Positions 26,211 to 31,630 of a stretch of DNA of 33,051 nucleotides are shown in pieces. The translations under genes and the position numbers were made by a program. Below the pieces are notes generated by a model. The model searched no databases and was not told where the DNA came from. It worked only from the letters and a program-made list of their open reading frames with translations. The stretch spans positions 1 to 33,051 of the forward strand of contig JAXLQJ010000072.1 of NCBI GenBank assembly GCA_046331705.1. Reading direction: 5' to 3'. Position 1 is the first letter of the stretch. Every line of letters starts with the position of its first letter. Source of the DNA: a bacterium (GTDB taxonomy: Bacteria; JADJOY01).

Positions 26211-26624
26211 TCACCCGGAACGCTCGAACCAGTCCGCGAGCTCGAGCTTCGGAATGCGCCCAAAGTGGCGGACGTTGCGCGTGACCACGACGAGCTCGTG
26301 GGTCAGCGCCGTGGCCGCAATCAGCAAATCGAGGTCCGCCACGGTCCGCCCGGCTCTCGCCAGCTCGGAGCGAAGCGCACCGTAGCGAGACGCCACCGCC
26401 ACCTCGACCGGCAGCACGGGCACCCGTGGCAGCACGACGTCTTGGAGGTACGCGAGGTAACGCTCGCCATTGGGGATGCGCAGGGCCCCGAAGACGATTT
26501 CACCCACGCTGATTGACGAGATCGCAACCTCGGCCGCGTGTGCATCGAGCGTGCGCAGGAACCGCTCCGACGGTCGCCGCCGAACGGGCTCGCTCAGCGC
26601 ATCCGTATCGAGCAGGTACTTCAC
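26211..26624 (-). CDS. vapC: VapC PIN-domain toxin
   Basis: YLLDTDALSE, SVGEI, DLLIAATAL, VTRNVRHF. Start overlaps the antitoxin stop (ATGTGA). Confidence 0.93.
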   Translation of the reverse strand: MKYLLDTDALSEPVRRRPSERFLRTLDAHAAEVAISSISVGEIVFGALRIPNGERYLAYLQDVVLPRVPVLPVEVAVASRYGALRSELARAGRTVADLDLLIAATALTHELVVVTRNVRHFGRIPKLELADWFERSG

Positions 26625-26896
26625 ATCGGGGCGCGGCGGCGGGAGATCGTGCGGCGTTCCGGGATGAGATCGGCGAGGTCCGGTAACCCGGATGGGAGGC
26701 GCTTCGCGAACGCGCGGGCAGCGCGCACGAAGCCCGAGGCATCCTCGCCCCGCTCCACGCGAGCGAGGTCCTCGATTCCGACGATGGCCGCGATCGGCTT
26801 GCCGCGTCGGGTGATCTGGAAGCGCTCTCCCGCGTGCGCCCGACTGGCGAGCTCAGAAAGCGACGCCTTGGCTTCGGCAATGGGAACGTTCTTCAC
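26621..26896 (-). CDS. Phd/YefM family antitoxin (start GTG 26896, alternatively ATG 26923 or 26932)
   Basis: VKNVPIAEAKASLSELASRAHAGERFQITRRGKPIAAIV; GGAG about 10 nt before the GTG. Confidence 0.88.
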   Translation of the reverse strand: MKNVPIAEAKASLSELASRAHAGERFQITRRGKPIAAIVGIEDLARVERGEDASGFVRAARAFAKRLPSGLPDLADLIPERRTISRRRAPM

Positions 26897-26914
26897 GGCA
26901 ATGGGCTCCGTCGA

Positions 26915-26940
26915 ATGAGTCATTGTGACCATAACACGAT
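26915..26940 (-). promoter_or_regulatory. Putative promoter/operator of the TA operon
   Basis: AT-rich patch; the minus strand reads TGTTATGGTCACAATGACTCAT, a -10-like TATGGT overlapping the imperfect inverted repeat ATGGTCA..TGACTCAT. Confidence 0.4.
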
Positions 26941-27161
26941 GGGCTTCGTCGGGCGGGCGACGGCGTTGCGAGCGCCGACGCCACGAGGCGGCGGCGTGCT
27001 GCAACGGCGGTGACCGCCGAGCGCTTCTCGGTCGGGGGGCGGTGGGTGGGGGCGCGGCACCGCGCGGTGAAGAGAGACAGGAGTGCGTGGGTACCGGCGG
27101 GTGTCAAGATAGTTGCCGCGTGAATCGTTCTCACGGCGTGGCCGGCCTCACCCCGGCTTCC

Positions 27162-27311
27162 CCGGCACCGACCTTCGGCCGGTGCCGGTGCCCTTGCGTC
27201 CGATAAGCCGCGGCTTATCCGACGCTGCGGCGCAAGCCGGACCTCGGCCTTTGACGGAACGAACATTCCGTCAATCTGCCCCCGGTCGCTTCGGTGTTGC
27301 GACACCGAAGC
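27162..27311. repeat. Cluster of four strong palindromes/hairpins upstream of the RAYT gene (REP-like)
   Basis: 27162-27188 CCGGCACCG/CGGTGCCGG; 27196-27225 30-bp palindrome with one mismatched pair; 27251-27274 TTGACGGAA/TTCCGTCAA; 27288-27311 GCTTCGGTGT/ACACCGAAGC. Confidence 0.75.
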
Positions 27312-27630
27312 TCGGCAGCCACCTCCCGCCCACGGCTCCGCCCCGCGCGGCGCTCGCGCGAGCGAGACCATGCCGGCGGTCACCGGCGTTGCAACGCGGT
27401 GAACGGCAGACGCACCCGCAACGCCGGTGCCCGCCGGACGCTCCGCCCGCACGGTCGGGAGCCGCGCGCCCGCCGTCCGGTTCACGCGCGCTCGTCCTCT
27501 CGCCACCCGCCCCCAGCTCGGGCTCGCTTGCTGCGCCTCGGCGTTCACCCCGTGCGAACGCCGAGGCGCAGGGCGAGCTCGCGCGCAGTGAAAAGAAGAG
27601 CGATCCCGCGTCGCGCGCCACCGCGTGGCA

Positions 27631-27645
27631 CGGCACGGGCTGTGC
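27631..27645 (+). promoter_or_regulatory. Putative sigma54-type promoter of the RAYT gene
   Basis: CGGCACGGGCTGTGC with GG-N10-GC spacing, ending 16 bp before ATG 27662. No RBS, so the transcript may be near-leaderless. Confidence 0.45.
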
Positions 27646-27661
27646 CCTGCGTACTCGCGCC

Positions 27662-28585
27662 ATGCCGCGACCGATCCGTTGGCTCCAGCCGCGCACCCGC
27701 TGGTTCGTCACCTCGCGCACACTGGACGCCAAGTTCGCGTTCGTCCCCAACGTCGCCGTCAACCAATGCGTCGGATTCTGGTTCGGACGAGCGTTGAAGC
27801 GTTTTCCCGGAGTCCACGCACACGCGATCTACGTCGCTTCCAATCACCTGCACGCCTGCGTCACCGATCGAGACGGCTCGCTCTCGGCCTTCGTCGGATA
27901 CTTCCTCGGCCAGCTCGCCAAGGACGTCAACGCGCTCCGGGAGCGGCGCGGACCCATCTTCCATCGACGCTTCTCGGCCGAGCCCATCCTCGATGACGAC
28001 GCCGTCGCCGAGCGCATCGCCTACCTGGTCTGCAACCCGATTGACGATCGCTTGCTCGAAGACTGGCGCGAATGGCCAGGGATCTTGCTGTGGACGCAGT
28101 CCGACCAGCCCGAGACCTACCGGTTCCGCAGGCTCAACGAGACCGCGTACGACCTCGCCAAGGCCCACGCCGAGCGACAGGGGAAGAATATCAAGCAGGA
28201 GGACTACTTCGAGGAGGAGACCGTCACGATTTCCCCCGTCGACGATGGAGACGGAGGAGTCCTCGATCCGAACGCGATCGTGCGCGCCGTCGAGCGACGG
28301 GCGCAGGCGCTCCGCGAGCAGCATCGCGGCAAGCCGTATCTCGGAGTGAAGAAGATCCTCCGCCAGGACGCGAACGACGCACCGAAGCGATCCGACCACT
28401 CGCCGCGCCCGCTCTGCCACACGACACGGCTTGCGCTGTGGCAGGAGTTTCGGGAGCGCTGGCGCAGCCTCGTCGCCACCTACCGCGAGATCTCCGAGCG
28501 CTTCCGTCAGGGAGCGCTCCGCGCGCGGTTCCCCGCGTTCACCTTTCCGCCCTGGCGCCCCTTGATCGTGCCGTTGCAAACGTAG
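27662..28585 (+). CDS. REP-associated tyrosine transposase (RAYT-type HUH/Y1 transposase) with C-terminal extension
   Basis: MPRPIR..WFVTSRT, HUH motif SNHLH, RRGPIFHRRF, catalytic-Tyr motif AYLVCNP, EWPG; 307 aa. Confidence 0.88.
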   Translation: MPRPIRWLQPRTRWFVTSRTLDAKFAFVPNVAVNQCVGFWFGRALKRFPGVHAHAIYVASNHLHACVTDRDGSLSAFVGYFLGQLAKDVNALRERRGPIFHRRFSAEPILDDDAVAERIAYLVCNPIDDRLLEDWREWPGILLWTQSDQPETYRFRRLNETAYDLAKAHAERQGKNIKQEDYFEEETVTISPVDDGDGGVLDPNAIVRAVERRAQALREQHRGKPYLGVKKILRQDANDAPKRSDHSPRPLCHTTRLALWQEFRERWRSLVATYREISERFRQGALRARFPAFTFPPWRPLIVPLQT

Positions 28586-28588
28586 CGA

Positions 28589-28801
28589 CGTTCGCGACGT
28601 CGGATCGATCGAGCACGATCACCCCGTCGTGAACGGGAGCGGTGTGCGTCGCGTGCGCAGCGACGCTCGCCGCGATCGCTTTCGTCGGCTCGCTTGTCCG
28701 CAAACCCCTCGAAAACATGCTCACCGATGAGGTTGGCGCGGTCGGTCGAGACCGCGGGGCGCCCGTTCAACGCACGCAGTCAACAAGGTGGGTGGCACCC
28801 T
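28589..28801 (+). repeat. Direct repeat copy 1 (213 bp, structured, non-coding), starting 3 bp after the RAYT stop
   Basis: Aligns by hand with 28880-29093 at about 87% identity (about 27 differences); ends CAACAAGGTGGGTGGCACCCT. Confidence 0.92.
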
Positions 28802-28809
28802 TTCCCCGG

Positions 28810-28877
28810 GCCGAGCCCATCCTCGACGACGAGGCCGTGGCCGAACGAATCGCGTACCTCGTCTGCAATCCGATCGA
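28810..28877 (+). pseudogene. 68-bp fragment of a sister RAYT gene covering the catalytic-Tyr region
   Basis: Encodes AEPILDDEAVAERIAYLVCNPI. Matches 27977-28044 at 59/68, with all 9 differences at third codon positions. Confidence 0.9.
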
Positions 28878-28879
28878 GT

Positions 28880-29093
28880 CGTTCGCGACGTCGGCGCTTC
28901 CGAGCACGATCCCGAGGTCGTGAACGGGAAGAGGTGTGCGTCGCGTACGCAGCGACGCTCGTCGCGATCGCTTTCGTCGGCTCGCTGATCCGCGAACCCC
29001 TCGAAAACACGCTCATCGATGAGGTTGGCGCGGTCGGTCGAGACCACGCGGCACCCGTTAAACCCCCGCGTTCAACAAGGTGGATGGCACCCT
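28880..29093 (+). repeat. Direct repeat copy 2 (214 bp)
   Basis: Homologous to 28589-28801; ends CAACAAGGTGGATGGCACCCT. Confidence 0.92.
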
Positions 29094-29195
29094 GTGCTGC
29101 GCACCCGGCGCGCGTTGAATGCCCCGCTCCAACCAGGAGGGCGGTACCCCGGTCTGGGCGCGATTGCTTTTCAGATGGCGCCAAATTGCGAGCGG

Positions 29196-29636
29196 CTATT
29201 GAGGGTTATCACGGGAACCAAACCGGTTTGGTCCGGTGGTGCCCGGTGTGATGAACAAAACCAGCGGGAAAAGTAGCCAGCAAACGATGCCGAAGATGAG
29301 TGAGATGAACCGAAAGTCGGGGAACAGTAGAGCGACGGGAACCGGAAGAAGCGATACGAGACACCACGCCGCTGACTCTCCGATATCATGGAGACGCCTG
29401 CAGACGGCAGAATAGTACAGTCCAACTGACACAATCAGCCACACCGCTATCACCATGATTATGATGACGATGATGTCCGGCGGGTGTTGGATGGGTCCGG
29501 TAGTTCCCCGAAGCGGTTCGACACCAAAGTGATAGGCCAGGTAGGTGCCGGAGTTGATAAGTATCCAGCTAAATAGGAATCTTCGCCGGCCAAGCCGGCC
29601 GCGAACCGGAAAAAGATCGAAGCGTGCTGCAGGCAT
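29196..29636 (-). CDS. DUF805 (YhaH/YhaI-like) membrane protein, low GC
   Basis: GRLGRRRF, RRLHDIGES, PGTTGPNRFG, hydrophobic helices. Sampled 60-bp lines are about 45-53% GC. Confidence 0.88.
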   Translation of the reverse strand: MPAARFDLFPVRGRLGRRRFLFSWILINSGTYLAYHFGVEPLRGTTGPIQHPPDIIVIIIMVIAVWLIVSVGLYYSAVCRRLHDIGESAAWCLVSLLPVPVALLFPDFRFISLIFGIVCWLLFPLVLFITPGTTGPNRFGSRDNPQ

Positions 29637-29737
29637 ATTATCAGCCTTTCGAACTGTTACTTTGGCCCTACTTTTGAATCGCTCGCACATGTGAAGCGGC
29701 AACAATTGACTTCAGCGCAAAAAAACCGAGGAGAGGA

Positions 29738-31630
29738 TCACCTCACCCACCGTCCATACCAGTACGTGTACCGGAAGTCCACGCCGGGGATGAGGCGGCT
29801 GCCGTCGCCGCCGCCGTTGGGGTCGTAGGGGTTGGACCGCCAGTAGTAGTTGCTGGGTGGTCGGACGGCGAAGGGGATTGGCTGAACGGTGATGAGCTCG
29901 TCGTTGCGGCCGACGTAGCCGAGGACGTCGAGGTGGGTGCCGTCGTCGGCGGTGCACGAGCCGGAGGCGATCTCGGTGTCGTCGCAGTTCGTGCGGGCGA
30001 TGTCCCAGAAGGGTGGCACCGGAAATGCCTTCAGGGTGGCGATGCCCTTGGCGAGGGCTTCGGCGTCGGGGCGGCGCGGGAAGCGGGTGTAGGCGGAGGC
30101 GTCGGCGATGCCGGCGGAATACGTGAAGTCGTAAAGCGTCTGACCCTGCTCGATGGGCTGGCGGGTGCCCGGTTTCGAGTAGAACTTCCACTTGAGGCTC
30201 GTGATGAGGTCCGCTCGGGCGTCGGGATCGGTGACGTAGCGCTGCGCCAGCAGCAATCCCTGGCCGACCATGTTCACGGCGCTGAAGTTCGTCTGGTAGC
30301 CGACGTCCACGCCCACCAGGTTGGCGGCGACGATGTCGCCGAAGCGGCGGGCGCCGATGAGCTGATCGTAGAGATAGCTCTCGAGCGCGGCGTCGCCGCT
30401 CACGTACGCAAACGAGGACACGATGCCGAGGGACATGGCGGCGTAGAAGCCGTCCTTCACGGGCAGGAAGGGCAGGTAGATCCGGTCGAAGGCGTTCTCG
30501 TTCAGGTAGGCATGGAACGTGGGGCGGCCGTCGGCGTCCTGGATCTCGAGGTCGTAGCCGCTCGCTTGCACGGTCGAGAGCATGCGGCCGAGTGCGGCGG
30601 CGTCTGCCTGCAGTCGCGTGCGCACGTCGTCGCCGAAGGTGGGGTCGGCCGCGATCACCTCCCAGGCGGCGCCCATCGCGGCGGCCCAGCCGATGAACTG
30701 GTCGCGGCTACACGAGTCTTCCCAGATGTAGTTCGGAAAGAGCCCCCCCGAGTTGTCCTCGCGCCACGTGCCGTTGTTCTTCTCGGGCGGCAGCGGATTG
30801 CCGTTCTCGTCGAAGAGCGGTGTGGTGGGTTGCGTCACTCCGTCGCCCGGGATGTCGCGGCGGATGAAGCCGCGCGCGATGACGCCGTCCACACCGGTGA
30901 TCGCCACCGCGAGGTGCAGCGCGTCCAGCGCCGCCAGCAGGTGCTGTCGCGCTCGCGCGGTCTCGTCGGCGGGATAGCCCTCGTCGCGCAGCACGCCGTA
31001 GCGATACGCATCGGCGGCGATTCCCACGCCCGCGTAGAGACCGGCGGTCTTCGCCCAGCCGGTGACGGTGTCGTAGATCGATTGGCCGGCGTAGGCCTCG
31101 AAATCCCAGCCGTCGGTTTCCTGCAGGAACGAGCGGATGAGCTCACGATCGACGACGCGATCGTTCGCGACGGTGAGGTCCGCGTTGATGGCCATCGGAG
31201 CGGCGTTGAAGACGTGGAACTGGCGGTCGTACTTTCGCGCCAGGGCTTCGAGGTCGGCGTCGTAGCCGTACTCGGTGGGACCGGGAATCATCGAGCCGCG
31301 GCAGGCCAGCGCACCGCTGGTCACCACGAAGTCGTCCGCGGAGCTCTGTGTCTCGCCGAGGGCGACGACGCGAACCGGTGCCGTCACCGCACCGGCGGGA
31401 ACCACCACGTCGATCGCGGTTTGCGACCAGCCGCGGACCTCGGTCGCCTCGACGTCGCCGAAGAAGACCTGGCTCGCATCCTGGGTGAACCCGAAGTTCT
31501 CGCCGCGGATGCGTACCACGTTGCCGACACAGCTCTGCGGCGGCTCGATGGAGCCGATGGTGTGGCAGCCGGCGAGCACGGCGAGCAGCAGCGTGGCGAG
31601 GACGGGGCGGAGGGGACGAGAAGAGCGCAT
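29738..31630 (-). CDS. Uncharacterised lipoprotein with an N-terminal IPT/TIG domain and a large helical domain
   Basis: ATG 31630 after AGGAG; lipobox LAGC; IPT signature VRIRGENFG..VFFG..WSQTAIDVVVP. Downstream domain has ITGVDGVIARG and SRDQ. Confidence 0.82.
   Translation of the reverse strand: MRSSRPLRPVLATLLLAVLAGCHTIGSIEPPQSCVGNVVRIRGENFGFTQDASQVFFGDVEATEVRGWSQTAIDVVVPAGAVTAPVRVVALGETQSSADDFVVTSGALACRGSMIPGPTEYGYDADLEALARKYDRQFHVFNAAPMAINADLTVANDRVVDRELIRSFLQETDGWDFEAYAGQSIYDTVTGWAKTAGLYAGVGIAADAYRYGVLRDEGYPADETARARQHLLAALDALHLAVAITGVDGVIARGFIRRDIPGDGVTQPTTPLFDENGNPLPPEKNNGTWREDNSGGLFPNYIWEDSCSRDQFIGWAAAMGAAWEVIAADPTFGDDVRTRLQADAAALGRMLSTVQASGYDLEIQDADGRPTFHAYLNENAFDRIYLPFLPVKDGFYAAMSLGIVSSFAYVSGDAALESYLYDQLIGARRFGDIVAANLVGVDVGYQTNFSAVNMVGQGLLLAQRYVTDPDARADLITSLKWKFYSKPGTRQPIEQGQTLYDFTYSAGIADASAYTRFPRRPDAEALAKGIATLKAFPVPPFWDIARTNCDDTEIASGSCTADDGTHLDVLGYVGRNDELITVQPIPFAVRPPSNYYWRSNPYDPNGGGDGSRLIPGVDFRYTYWYGRWVR

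Follow-up and report, generated by a model that had tools for sequence, protein, structure and literature searches.

Stacked right ends behind a RAYT-like gene: probably an intact TIRtron and a decaying sister copy

What gives rise to a repeat-spacer-repeat whose spacer reads like the active-site region of the gene beside it? The arrangement lies in contig JAXLQJ010000072.1 (C72) of a bacterial genome (G000), a metagenome bin of 118 contigs, 8.17 Mb and 70% G+C. Its positions 1-33,051, in nucleotides (nt), form the window analysed here. In it, a gene for a HUH/Y1 enzyme related to the RAYTs is followed by two direct repeats (units 1 and 2) that flank a piece of such a gene. A first-pass annotation, made from the letters of the window, had proposed two origins, a non-autonomous deletion derivative of a sister element or, more speculatively, a scaffold-plus-guide arrangement. 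We find that the locus is probably an intact TIRtron, that is, a RAYT homologue flanked by terminal inverted repeats (TIRs), followed by a stacked, 5'-truncated, internally deleted and decaying sister copy. It would thus be an ordinary mobile-element relic and not a guide-RNA system. The anatomy of the locus, its family context, the decay of unit 2 and a comparable stacked remnant in a relative are all directly observed.

The repeated unit as the right end of a cassette

The repeat search pairs 28635-28801 with 28927-29093 (167 nt, 89%) and 28589-28638 with 28880-28929 (50 nt, 82%). BLASTN merges both pairs into one match of 213/214 nt at 87.4% identity, in agreement with the two direct repeats of ~213 bp, about 87% identical, that had been described at first. 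Past the stop codons of the copies on C6 and C31 (same genome) and on G002:C320 and G001:C975 (relatives), the unit is found again. Because the paralog stop codons on C6 and C31 also precede the unit, a chance origin of the repeat is excluded. In G000, BLASTN places the unit after the stop codon on C72 (twice), C6 and C31 only, plus a 45-nt tip on C34; in the genus-mates it is again found at gene 3' ends. Apart from the tip on C34, the unit is therefore tied to gene 3' ends, and its treatment as a standalone repeat does not hold. By its sequence and position, the unit is the non-coding right end of a gene-bearing cassette and no free repeat.

When the copies are aligned with their flanks, the cassette has a constant order, consisting of a left tip, a hairpin (TGCGCC...GGCGCA), the gene, a non-coding stretch and an inverse tip. 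The inverse tips GGTGCCACCCAC and GTGGGTGGCACC bracket the copies. In the paralogs, ~165 nt separate the left tip GGTGCCACCCAC(C) from the ATG, and its inverse is reached 214-217 nt past the stop codon. Six close members keep to this 214-217 nt range on the right side; the distance is 228 nt in the C20 copy and 246 nt in the C31 copy, which carries an internal 32-nt duplication. The 13-letter tip occurs 20 times in the 8.17 Mb, ten times at cassette ends. Similarity of the host-side sequence to G003:C6 fades at ~27480-27515, near the left border of the window's cassette (Table 1).

Table 1. Features of the stacked locus in the window, and sites of tip stutter on other contigs of the same genome.
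Feature	Position	Strand	Description and basis
Left tip, degenerate	27499..27511	+	CTCGCCACCCGCC; 9/13 letters as in the family left tip GGTGCCACCCACC; 7-copy alignment; approximate left border of cassette
Left-end hairpin	27531..27571	+	Perfect 16-bp stem, TGCGCC...GGCGCA; inverted-repeat search
HUH/Y1 gene, intact, RAYT-like, TIRYT-type	27662..28585	+	307 amino acids (aa); open reading frame (ORF), NCBIfam, AlphaFold2 (AF2) model, fold match
Right end of intact cassette (unit 1), non-coding	28586..28799	+	214 nt; ends in tip GGTGGGTGGCACC at 28787-28799; hairpin 28646-28666 inside
Post-tip stretch	28800..28808	+	CTTTCCCCG; resembles what trails the tip in other copies (GGCACC-N6-8-GGGG)
Sister-gene fragment	28809..28878	+	Gene nucleotides 315-384, residues AEPILDDEAVAERIAYLVCNPIE; all of the 5' part and 541 nt on the 3' side absent
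Right end of sister copy (unit 2), decaying	28879..29091	+	Tip GGTGGATGGCACC
Third tip stub	29109..29150	+	Strongly degenerate copy of the right end's last ~42 nt; 28/42 matches
Stutter site, C29	18438-18518
Stutter sites, C6	226079-226178, 227546-227656
Stutter sites, C44	30498-30533, 31864-31917

The right ends do not look like coding sequence. Six-frame translations of 13 right ends hold no frame that is open in all of them, and their substitutions are without 3-base periodicity. A 93-aa ORF at 28642-28923, which runs through the fragment, is rejected, since the right ends show neither a shared open frame nor periodicity. The right ends change by 15-20%, versus 25-30% for the third codon positions of the gene. 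Given this slower change, the right end is probably constrained, as a cis element. In two relatives at 54% identity (L004 on G003:C23 and L005 on G004:C41) the right tip lies ~950 nt past the stop codon, not 214, and the extra DNA holds a long open frame (309 aa in L004).

Unit 2 has accumulated most of the differences between the two units. With four right ends as outgroups, unit 2 carries 16 derived changes and unit 1 carries 4, while 11 are ambiguous. One of the 16 is a G-to-A change in the core of the tip, and this core is unchanged in 12 of the 13 aligned right ends. As read from these substitutions, unit 2 is decaying.

Origin of the fragment and of unit 2

The fragment between the units (28809-28877) matches the gene at 27976-28044 in 60/69 positions, in the repeat search and by BLASTN, and the codon of the catalytic Tyr121 (28022-28024) falls inside the match. 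All nine differences are at third codon positions. One of them exchanges D for E, the residue of the family consensus. The original description, a 68-bp match to the catalytic-Tyr region with nine third-position differences and one D to E change, is thus accurate. The translation of the fragment is identical to the C31 and C44 proteins. At the nucleotide level, the fragment is closest to C6 (64/69, 92.8%), followed by C31, C52 and G002:C320 (63/69 or 63/68, 91.3%) and then by the resident gene (87%). Its private changes are GAA CGA at 28842-28847.

Polarised by eye against the listed paralogs, the nine differences divide evenly: three are changes of the resident gene, three are changes of the fragment, and the other three are ambiguous. 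Therefore, three to six silent changes, not nine, test for selection on the fragment lineage (p ~0.04 to 0.001). The earlier proposal that the spacer comes from a sister gene copy kept under protein-level selection, and not from a fresh local duplicate, is supported, with statistics weaker than nine out of nine would suggest.

An old local tandem duplication would offer a simpler history. In that case, everything in the resident cassette 3' of about gene nucleotide 315, as far as the tip, was copied in place, and the copy then drifted neutrally and lost 541 nt. It would account for the closest relative of unit 2 being unit 1 (86.6%, versus 75.6-78.3% for the other right ends), and the common tip duplications (14-40 nt; 12/19 right ends) make a continuum of lengths conceivable. 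In its favour, too, the three differences that arose in the resident gene did so where silent changes alone can survive. However, at the rate of unit 2 (16-22 derived changes per 217 nt) a neutral stretch of 69 nt is expected to carry ~3.4-4.6 first- or second-position changes, and none is seen (Poisson p ~0.03-0.01). The fragment is also closer to C6, C31 and G002:C320 than to the resident gene that it should have been copied from. A local duplication is therefore an unlikely source of the fragment.

In the history that we favour, with a separate sister copy, cassettes would have piled up head-to-tail at one site, either because one inserted beside an end already there or because copies recombined. 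Trimming of the older copy may have followed, from the side that abuts the right tip of the intact copy, as in transposon-adjacent deletions. It would have removed the left end of the sister cassette together with the initial 314 nt of its gene. An internal deletion of 541 nt (gene nucleotides 385-924) at a short microhomology would then have fused the 69-70 nt active-site region to the copy's own right end, leaving what is presumably a remnant without function of its own. The 42-nt stub behind unit 2 would be a still older third right tip. This stub reaches a number of matches that none of 5000 random genomic windows of equal size attains; it is absent from the genome-wide nhmmer matches with the tip profile (E <= 10), and it is the local test that identifies it.

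The microhomology fits only in part. The two 9-letter sequences are where they had been reported (GACGATCGC starting at 28043 and GACGTTCGC starting at 28587), and shortening by an internal deletion is supported. The joint between the fragment and unit 2, however, reads ...CCGATCGAG followed by TCGTTCGC, whereas a clean junction between the two sequences as they stand in the window would be two letters shorter. Because of these two extra letters the microhomology is plausible but not exact. In the same way, the idea of a non-autonomous deletion derivative is right about a deleted sister copy. The remnant is not a non-autonomous element, since of the two ends it retains the right one alone, with the G-to-A change in the tip core.

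Could the contig have been joined wrongly? The genome is a metagenome bin in 118 contigs and other copies of the family break contigs, so that two loci or strains might have been joined at the shared tip motif. The stretch is partly present in public sludge and wastewater sequencing runs from 13 studies, and four of these runs were compared as Logan pre-assembled contigs. A contig of run X2 spans 28815-28977 without differences and thereby bridges the joint between the fragment and unit 2. At the other joint, between unit 1 and the fragment (28799-28809), no contig listed in the compared runs gives a bridge, and two contigs that run along unit 1 diverge after ~28805-28807. Where differences are listed, the diverging contig carries eight of them, so it comes from relatives. 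Exact identity at the tips extends over only ~13-17 nt, not enough to mislead an assembler, 13% of positions differ between the units, and a relative's contig shows like stacking. We thus regard an assembly artefact as extremely unlikely. Contigs from RNA libraries cover 27584-27825 and 28277-28453 only, that is, gene and leader; the parts left uncovered, the units among them, are uninformative on transcription.

A working module is the remaining way to read the locus. Unit 1 would be an RNA or DNA scaffold with the 69 nt as a guide or decoy against sister transposase genes, or unit 2 would serve as an alternative right end. The fragment does keep a perfect reading of the Tyr helix with zero non-synonymous changes, and the right end is probably constrained relative to third codon positions. 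No TnpB/IscB-type or other effector or nuclease gene is nearby, however, as judged from the ORF list of the window and from Pfam searches with four neighbouring proteins. With no tnpB or iscB gene present, there is nothing to use a guide. The right end also lacks the marks of a structured scaffold RNA. Folded as RNA, the unit is no stabler than its shuffles (z-score -0.27), and the consensus fold of eight right ends contains one 7-bp hairpin (28646-28666) that is supported by GC-to-AU double changes, with a covariation term of +2.55. Rfam at E <= 1 yields no family and only chance miRNA matches on the upstream hairpins, and no promoter-like site was found at the locus. The scaffold-plus-guide arrangement is thus not borne out. 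Two further facts speak against any function of the module: the second example of such stacking, on G002:C207, keeps another part of the gene (the last 34 codons) and is decayed, and the tip of unit 2 is mutated. A functional module is very unlikely, and a guide or decoy role for the fragment itself more improbable still. The tempting guide-RNA reading is thereby removed, and the structure can be filed as a decayed tandem copy.

Several observations weigh against the decaying sister copy that we favour. An intact gene that matches the fragment exactly was not found by BLASTN in G000 or its relatives, the best match being the 92.8% noted above. A separate origin of the fragment is argued from few sites, namely the three to six changes on the fragment side, all of them synonymous, which makes that part of the case weaker. 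The 4:1 excess of changes in unit 2 suggests long relaxation, yet the fragment has no non-synonymous change, so that the apparent ages of the two parts are in slight tension. Gene conversion could explain it, because the paralogs are mosaics: the genes at G000:C6:226351-227274 and C31:28218-29141 share 77% identity over their first 264 nt and 96-97% over their last 264 nt, a pattern that points to conversion between copies. The same process may blur the descent of the paralogs. No clean empty site or orthologous locus that would define the borders was found among the relatives. The route of stacking, whether insertion beside a resident end or rearrangement between copies, is one that we infer. 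All copies in G000 differ by at least 13%, and there is therefore no sign of recent movement. Finally, the joint between unit 1 and the fragment is the one that the public contigs leave unbridged.

Sequence 5' of the cassette (27135-27479) is matched at 80% on G003:C6, where no cassette adjoins it, and the downstream synteny is on another contig. The G002:C320 cassette ends in a tip and stutter that overlap the start of C607, which runs into the ortholog of the window's 759-aa TIG-domain gene; the upstream flank of G002:C320 matches G000:C52, not C72. The region past the 3' end of the 759-aa gene varies among the relatives read at this flank, with an AT-rich stretch and the cassette in G002 and neither in G003.

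Stacked remnants and tip stutter in the family

The family comprises at least seven close and four distant copies in G000, 11 diverged copies together, with further copies in all four genus-mates. By BLASTN against the window gene, the full paralogs on C6 and C31 are 86.5% identical at the nucleotide level, followed by those on C44 (79%), C20 (78%) and C29 (72%). The C52 copy ends inside the gene at a contig end, and the distant paralogs on C3, C34, C8 and C1 have 35-42% protein identity. Where flanks are comparable, cassettes and host genes have diverged alike (84-85% versus 83-86% identity). Given this parity and the distance of at least 13% between copies, the family looks old and largely immobile.

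Among 41 genomes searched, the protein family is present in five, namely G000 and all four genus-mates. Of the 20 proteins that database searches return at E <= 0.001, the most distant alone are named RayT or have PF01797; this Pfam domain (Y1_Tnp) is confined to the distant relatives P0015 and P0017-P0020. A locus search with a narrower alignment gives six loci in genome contigs, all from the known genus-mates, and two in metagenome contigs.

A second stacked remnant is found on G002:C207. There, short tip repeats come after a full gene with its right end; behind them lie the final 34 codons of a gene and another right end, and this second stretch is 77.6% identical to the first over 330 nt. 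In the coding part of the second copy, the differences are spread 6/6/11 over the three codon positions, conserved residues are altered and the stop codon is lost. From these changes, the coding part of this remnant is visibly dead. Among the close-subfamily right ends with a downstream read, gene-derived sequence follows unit 1 of the window and the first right end of G002:C207 only. The gene-derived piece on G002:C207 is the 3' end of the gene, not the active-site region, and the right ends of the other copies lead into tip stutter and unrelated DNA. Moreover, the distant paralog on C34 is followed by a solo tip of the main subfamily, and G003:C13 has two tips at a distance of 80 nt.

At most ends the tip motif (GGCACC or GTCACC) stutters in tandem with a copy-specific spacer, as in GGCACCGTTCGGGG, repeated ~6 times on C29. 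TRF detects arrays at 12 of 19 assessable right ends, some of which belong to distant paralogs whose tips are of the GTGTCACC type. Arrays also lie on or next to four left tips (L006, L007, L010 and L013). The duplicated segments are 14-40 nt long. The spacer is constant within an array but varies from copy to copy and also from one end of a copy to the other. The letters directly past GGCACC are non-random (often C-T-N-T), and the true end may therefore lie past the arrays. At L003 (G001:C148), the left tip GGTGCCACCC falls within the last codons of an upstream open frame, and the orthologous G002:C207 has five tandem GCATGCGGTGCC units at this place.

In this spectrum of stutter, the window's stack of a full copy, a 283-nt remnant and a 42-nt stub seems to stand at the long and old extreme. 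A bolder interpretation is that the stacked remnants (~1.3 kb intact, 283 nt and 42 nt) and the tip stutter are all footprints of one enzyme activity. Nicking at the tip, followed by re-copying or re-joining, would duplicate end-proximal segments of variable length and leave 5'-truncated tandem copies, in a manner that would resemble one-ended or rolling-circle HUH elements. We consider this rather doubtful; if it is true, these loci would be a first mechanistic handle on how TIRYT proteins act.

The enzyme and its place among HUH/Y1 elements

The HUH motif of the 307-aa protein is NHLH (residues 61-64), and the catalytic tyrosine is Y121 in YLVCNP. Residues N61, H62, H64 and Y121 are invariant in 16/16 aligned relatives, and N125 and P126 in the ten closer ones. 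The NCBIfam model REP_Tyr_transpos (NF047646) matches residues 6-139 (E 4.5e-11) with 42.8 bits, below its cut-off of 80. Pfam, including Y1_Tnp, gives no match for the protein even at E <= 10. The AF2 model has a pLDDT of 89, and its best Foldseek match is the complex of the Escherichia coli RAYT with REP DNA (4ER8; E 2.8e-5, TM-score 0.66 on the target, 144 columns), which covers the N-terminal ~140 residues at 16% identity. The transposases of IS608, ISDra2 and IS200 come after it in the ranking (ranks 2-11 and beyond). For the C-terminal half (~residues 141-307), with its conserved SPRPLCH and FPxFTFPPWRP, no match to any family was found. By motifs and predicted fold, the protein is a divergent HUH/Y1 enzyme nearest the RAYT fold.

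The gene thus has the HUH motif and the single tyrosine in Y-x3-NP on an IS200-like fold, as RAYTs do. It resembles the E. coli TnpA-REP protein (4ER8) in its N-terminal fold and catalytic motifs and differs from it in being twice as long, in the low identity and in scoring under the NCBIfam cut-off; PF01797 is not matched either. In G000 we found no GTAG-tagged family of repetitive extragenic palindrome (REP) hairpins and no dispersed REPs tied to these genes. Because no dispersed REP family accompanies the genes, a strict definition of RAYT fails on the REP feature. The premise of the first-pass annotation, that RAYTs go with short REPs and not with 200-bp ends, is accordingly beside the point: the gene belongs to the TIR-flanked TIRYT branch, and the 214 nt are the stretch from stop codon to right repeat.

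The closest published description, of which we draw on an excerpt, is that of the TIRtrons, RAYT homologues (TIRYTs) with a TIR on either side at a set distance from the gene, frequently in species that lack REPs (Di Nocera et al. 2013, PMC3733652). Some of these TIRs share the motif GGGGWSAS, and some form dimers or clusters (PMC3733652). The window's family agrees in having a HUH/Y1 gene with REP-unrelated TIRs instead of REP hairpins, set distances, few copies of the repeats and dimers or clusters, although the left tip of the window's own copy is degenerate (9/13). It departs from the excerpted description in the 307-aa protein with a conserved, Pfam-less C-terminal half, in the 11 diverged copies per genome and in the tandem repetition of the tip with a copy-specific spacer. 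By the published wording of the motif and leaving orientation aside, GGGGTCAC, which would correspond to GGGGWSAS, is found in the end repeats of the distant paralogs L018 and L023, and the window's subfamily has GGGTGGCAC or GGGGGCAC, one letter off.

In the TnpAY1 classification, likewise consulted in part, most TIRYTs are placed in subclass 2.1, prevalent in delta-proteobacteria, and subclass 2.3 comprises long (median 325 aa), multi-copy (mean 3.9), REP-less proteins (PMC6006769). The family shares with class 2 the NHxH and Y-x3-NP motifs, the lack of REPs nearby, a long C-terminal extension and several diverged copies per genome (PMC6006769). Compared by published motifs, its NHLH and YLVCNP differ from those given for subclass 2.1 (NHVH or NH[YF]H, YIELNP or Y[IV]HLNP) and subclass 2.3 (NHYH, YVDLNP) (PMC6006769). 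Unlike in the class 2 comparators, Pfam detects no helix-turn-helix or DnaA_C domain in the 307-aa protein. Going by these motif descriptions, we place the protein at the level of TnpAY1 class 2, as a TIRYT-type member. For RAYT groups, 1.3-1.8 copies per replicon are reported in the part of PMC5581495 used here, so that 11 diverged copies are on the high side.

Elements of the IS200/IS605 family (IS608, ISDra2) share the Y1 HUH fold and a structured left end with a hairpin. IS200 itself is described, in Table 1 of PMC6006769, as having a protein of ~150 aa with Y-x3-Q, subterminal hairpins without TIRs, and within-genome copies that are 99.4% identical. The window's family is unlike these elements in its 307 aa, Y-x3-NP, inverted-repeat ends, copies that are at most 86.5% identical, and the lack of tnpB or iscB, and is not placed among them. 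Its left-end hairpin is present in 22/22 aligned left ends with paired changes in the stem and is found only beside gene copies. Folded as single-stranded DNA, the left end is far stabler than its shuffles (z-score -3.52).

To the known classes the locus adds a genus-restricted, multi-copy, TIR-flanked HUH/Y1 family in which the length of the right end is conserved, the hairpin of the left end covaries, the C-terminal domain is new and end duplications recur. The parts of the TIRtron and TnpAY1 literature cited here (PMC3733652, PMC6006769) give no demonstrated activity for TIRYT/TIRtron proteins, and the piled-up, stuttering ends are natural substrates for a first binding or cleavage assay.

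By Pfam, the four neighbouring proteins of the cassette are PIN, PhdYeFM, DUF805 and TIG, the DUF805 one being a membrane protein. A stretch of lower G+C (29165-29738), which holds the DUF805 ORF (29196-29705, minus strand), separates the stacked right ends from the TIG-domain gene; a search of five relatives gives no counterpart for it. The cassette is immediately preceded by a pair (26211-27004) of a VapC-type PIN toxin and a Phd/YefM antitoxin, with a 77% match in G003 on a contig other than that of the downstream synteny. The intergenic stretch at 27135-27479 is hairpin-rich (stems include 27196-27225 and 27373-27437), single-copy in G000 and without an Rfam match. Its ~80% conservation extends over 350 nt on G003:C6, with no cassette alongside, and it could be a structured RNA or a leader of some kind.

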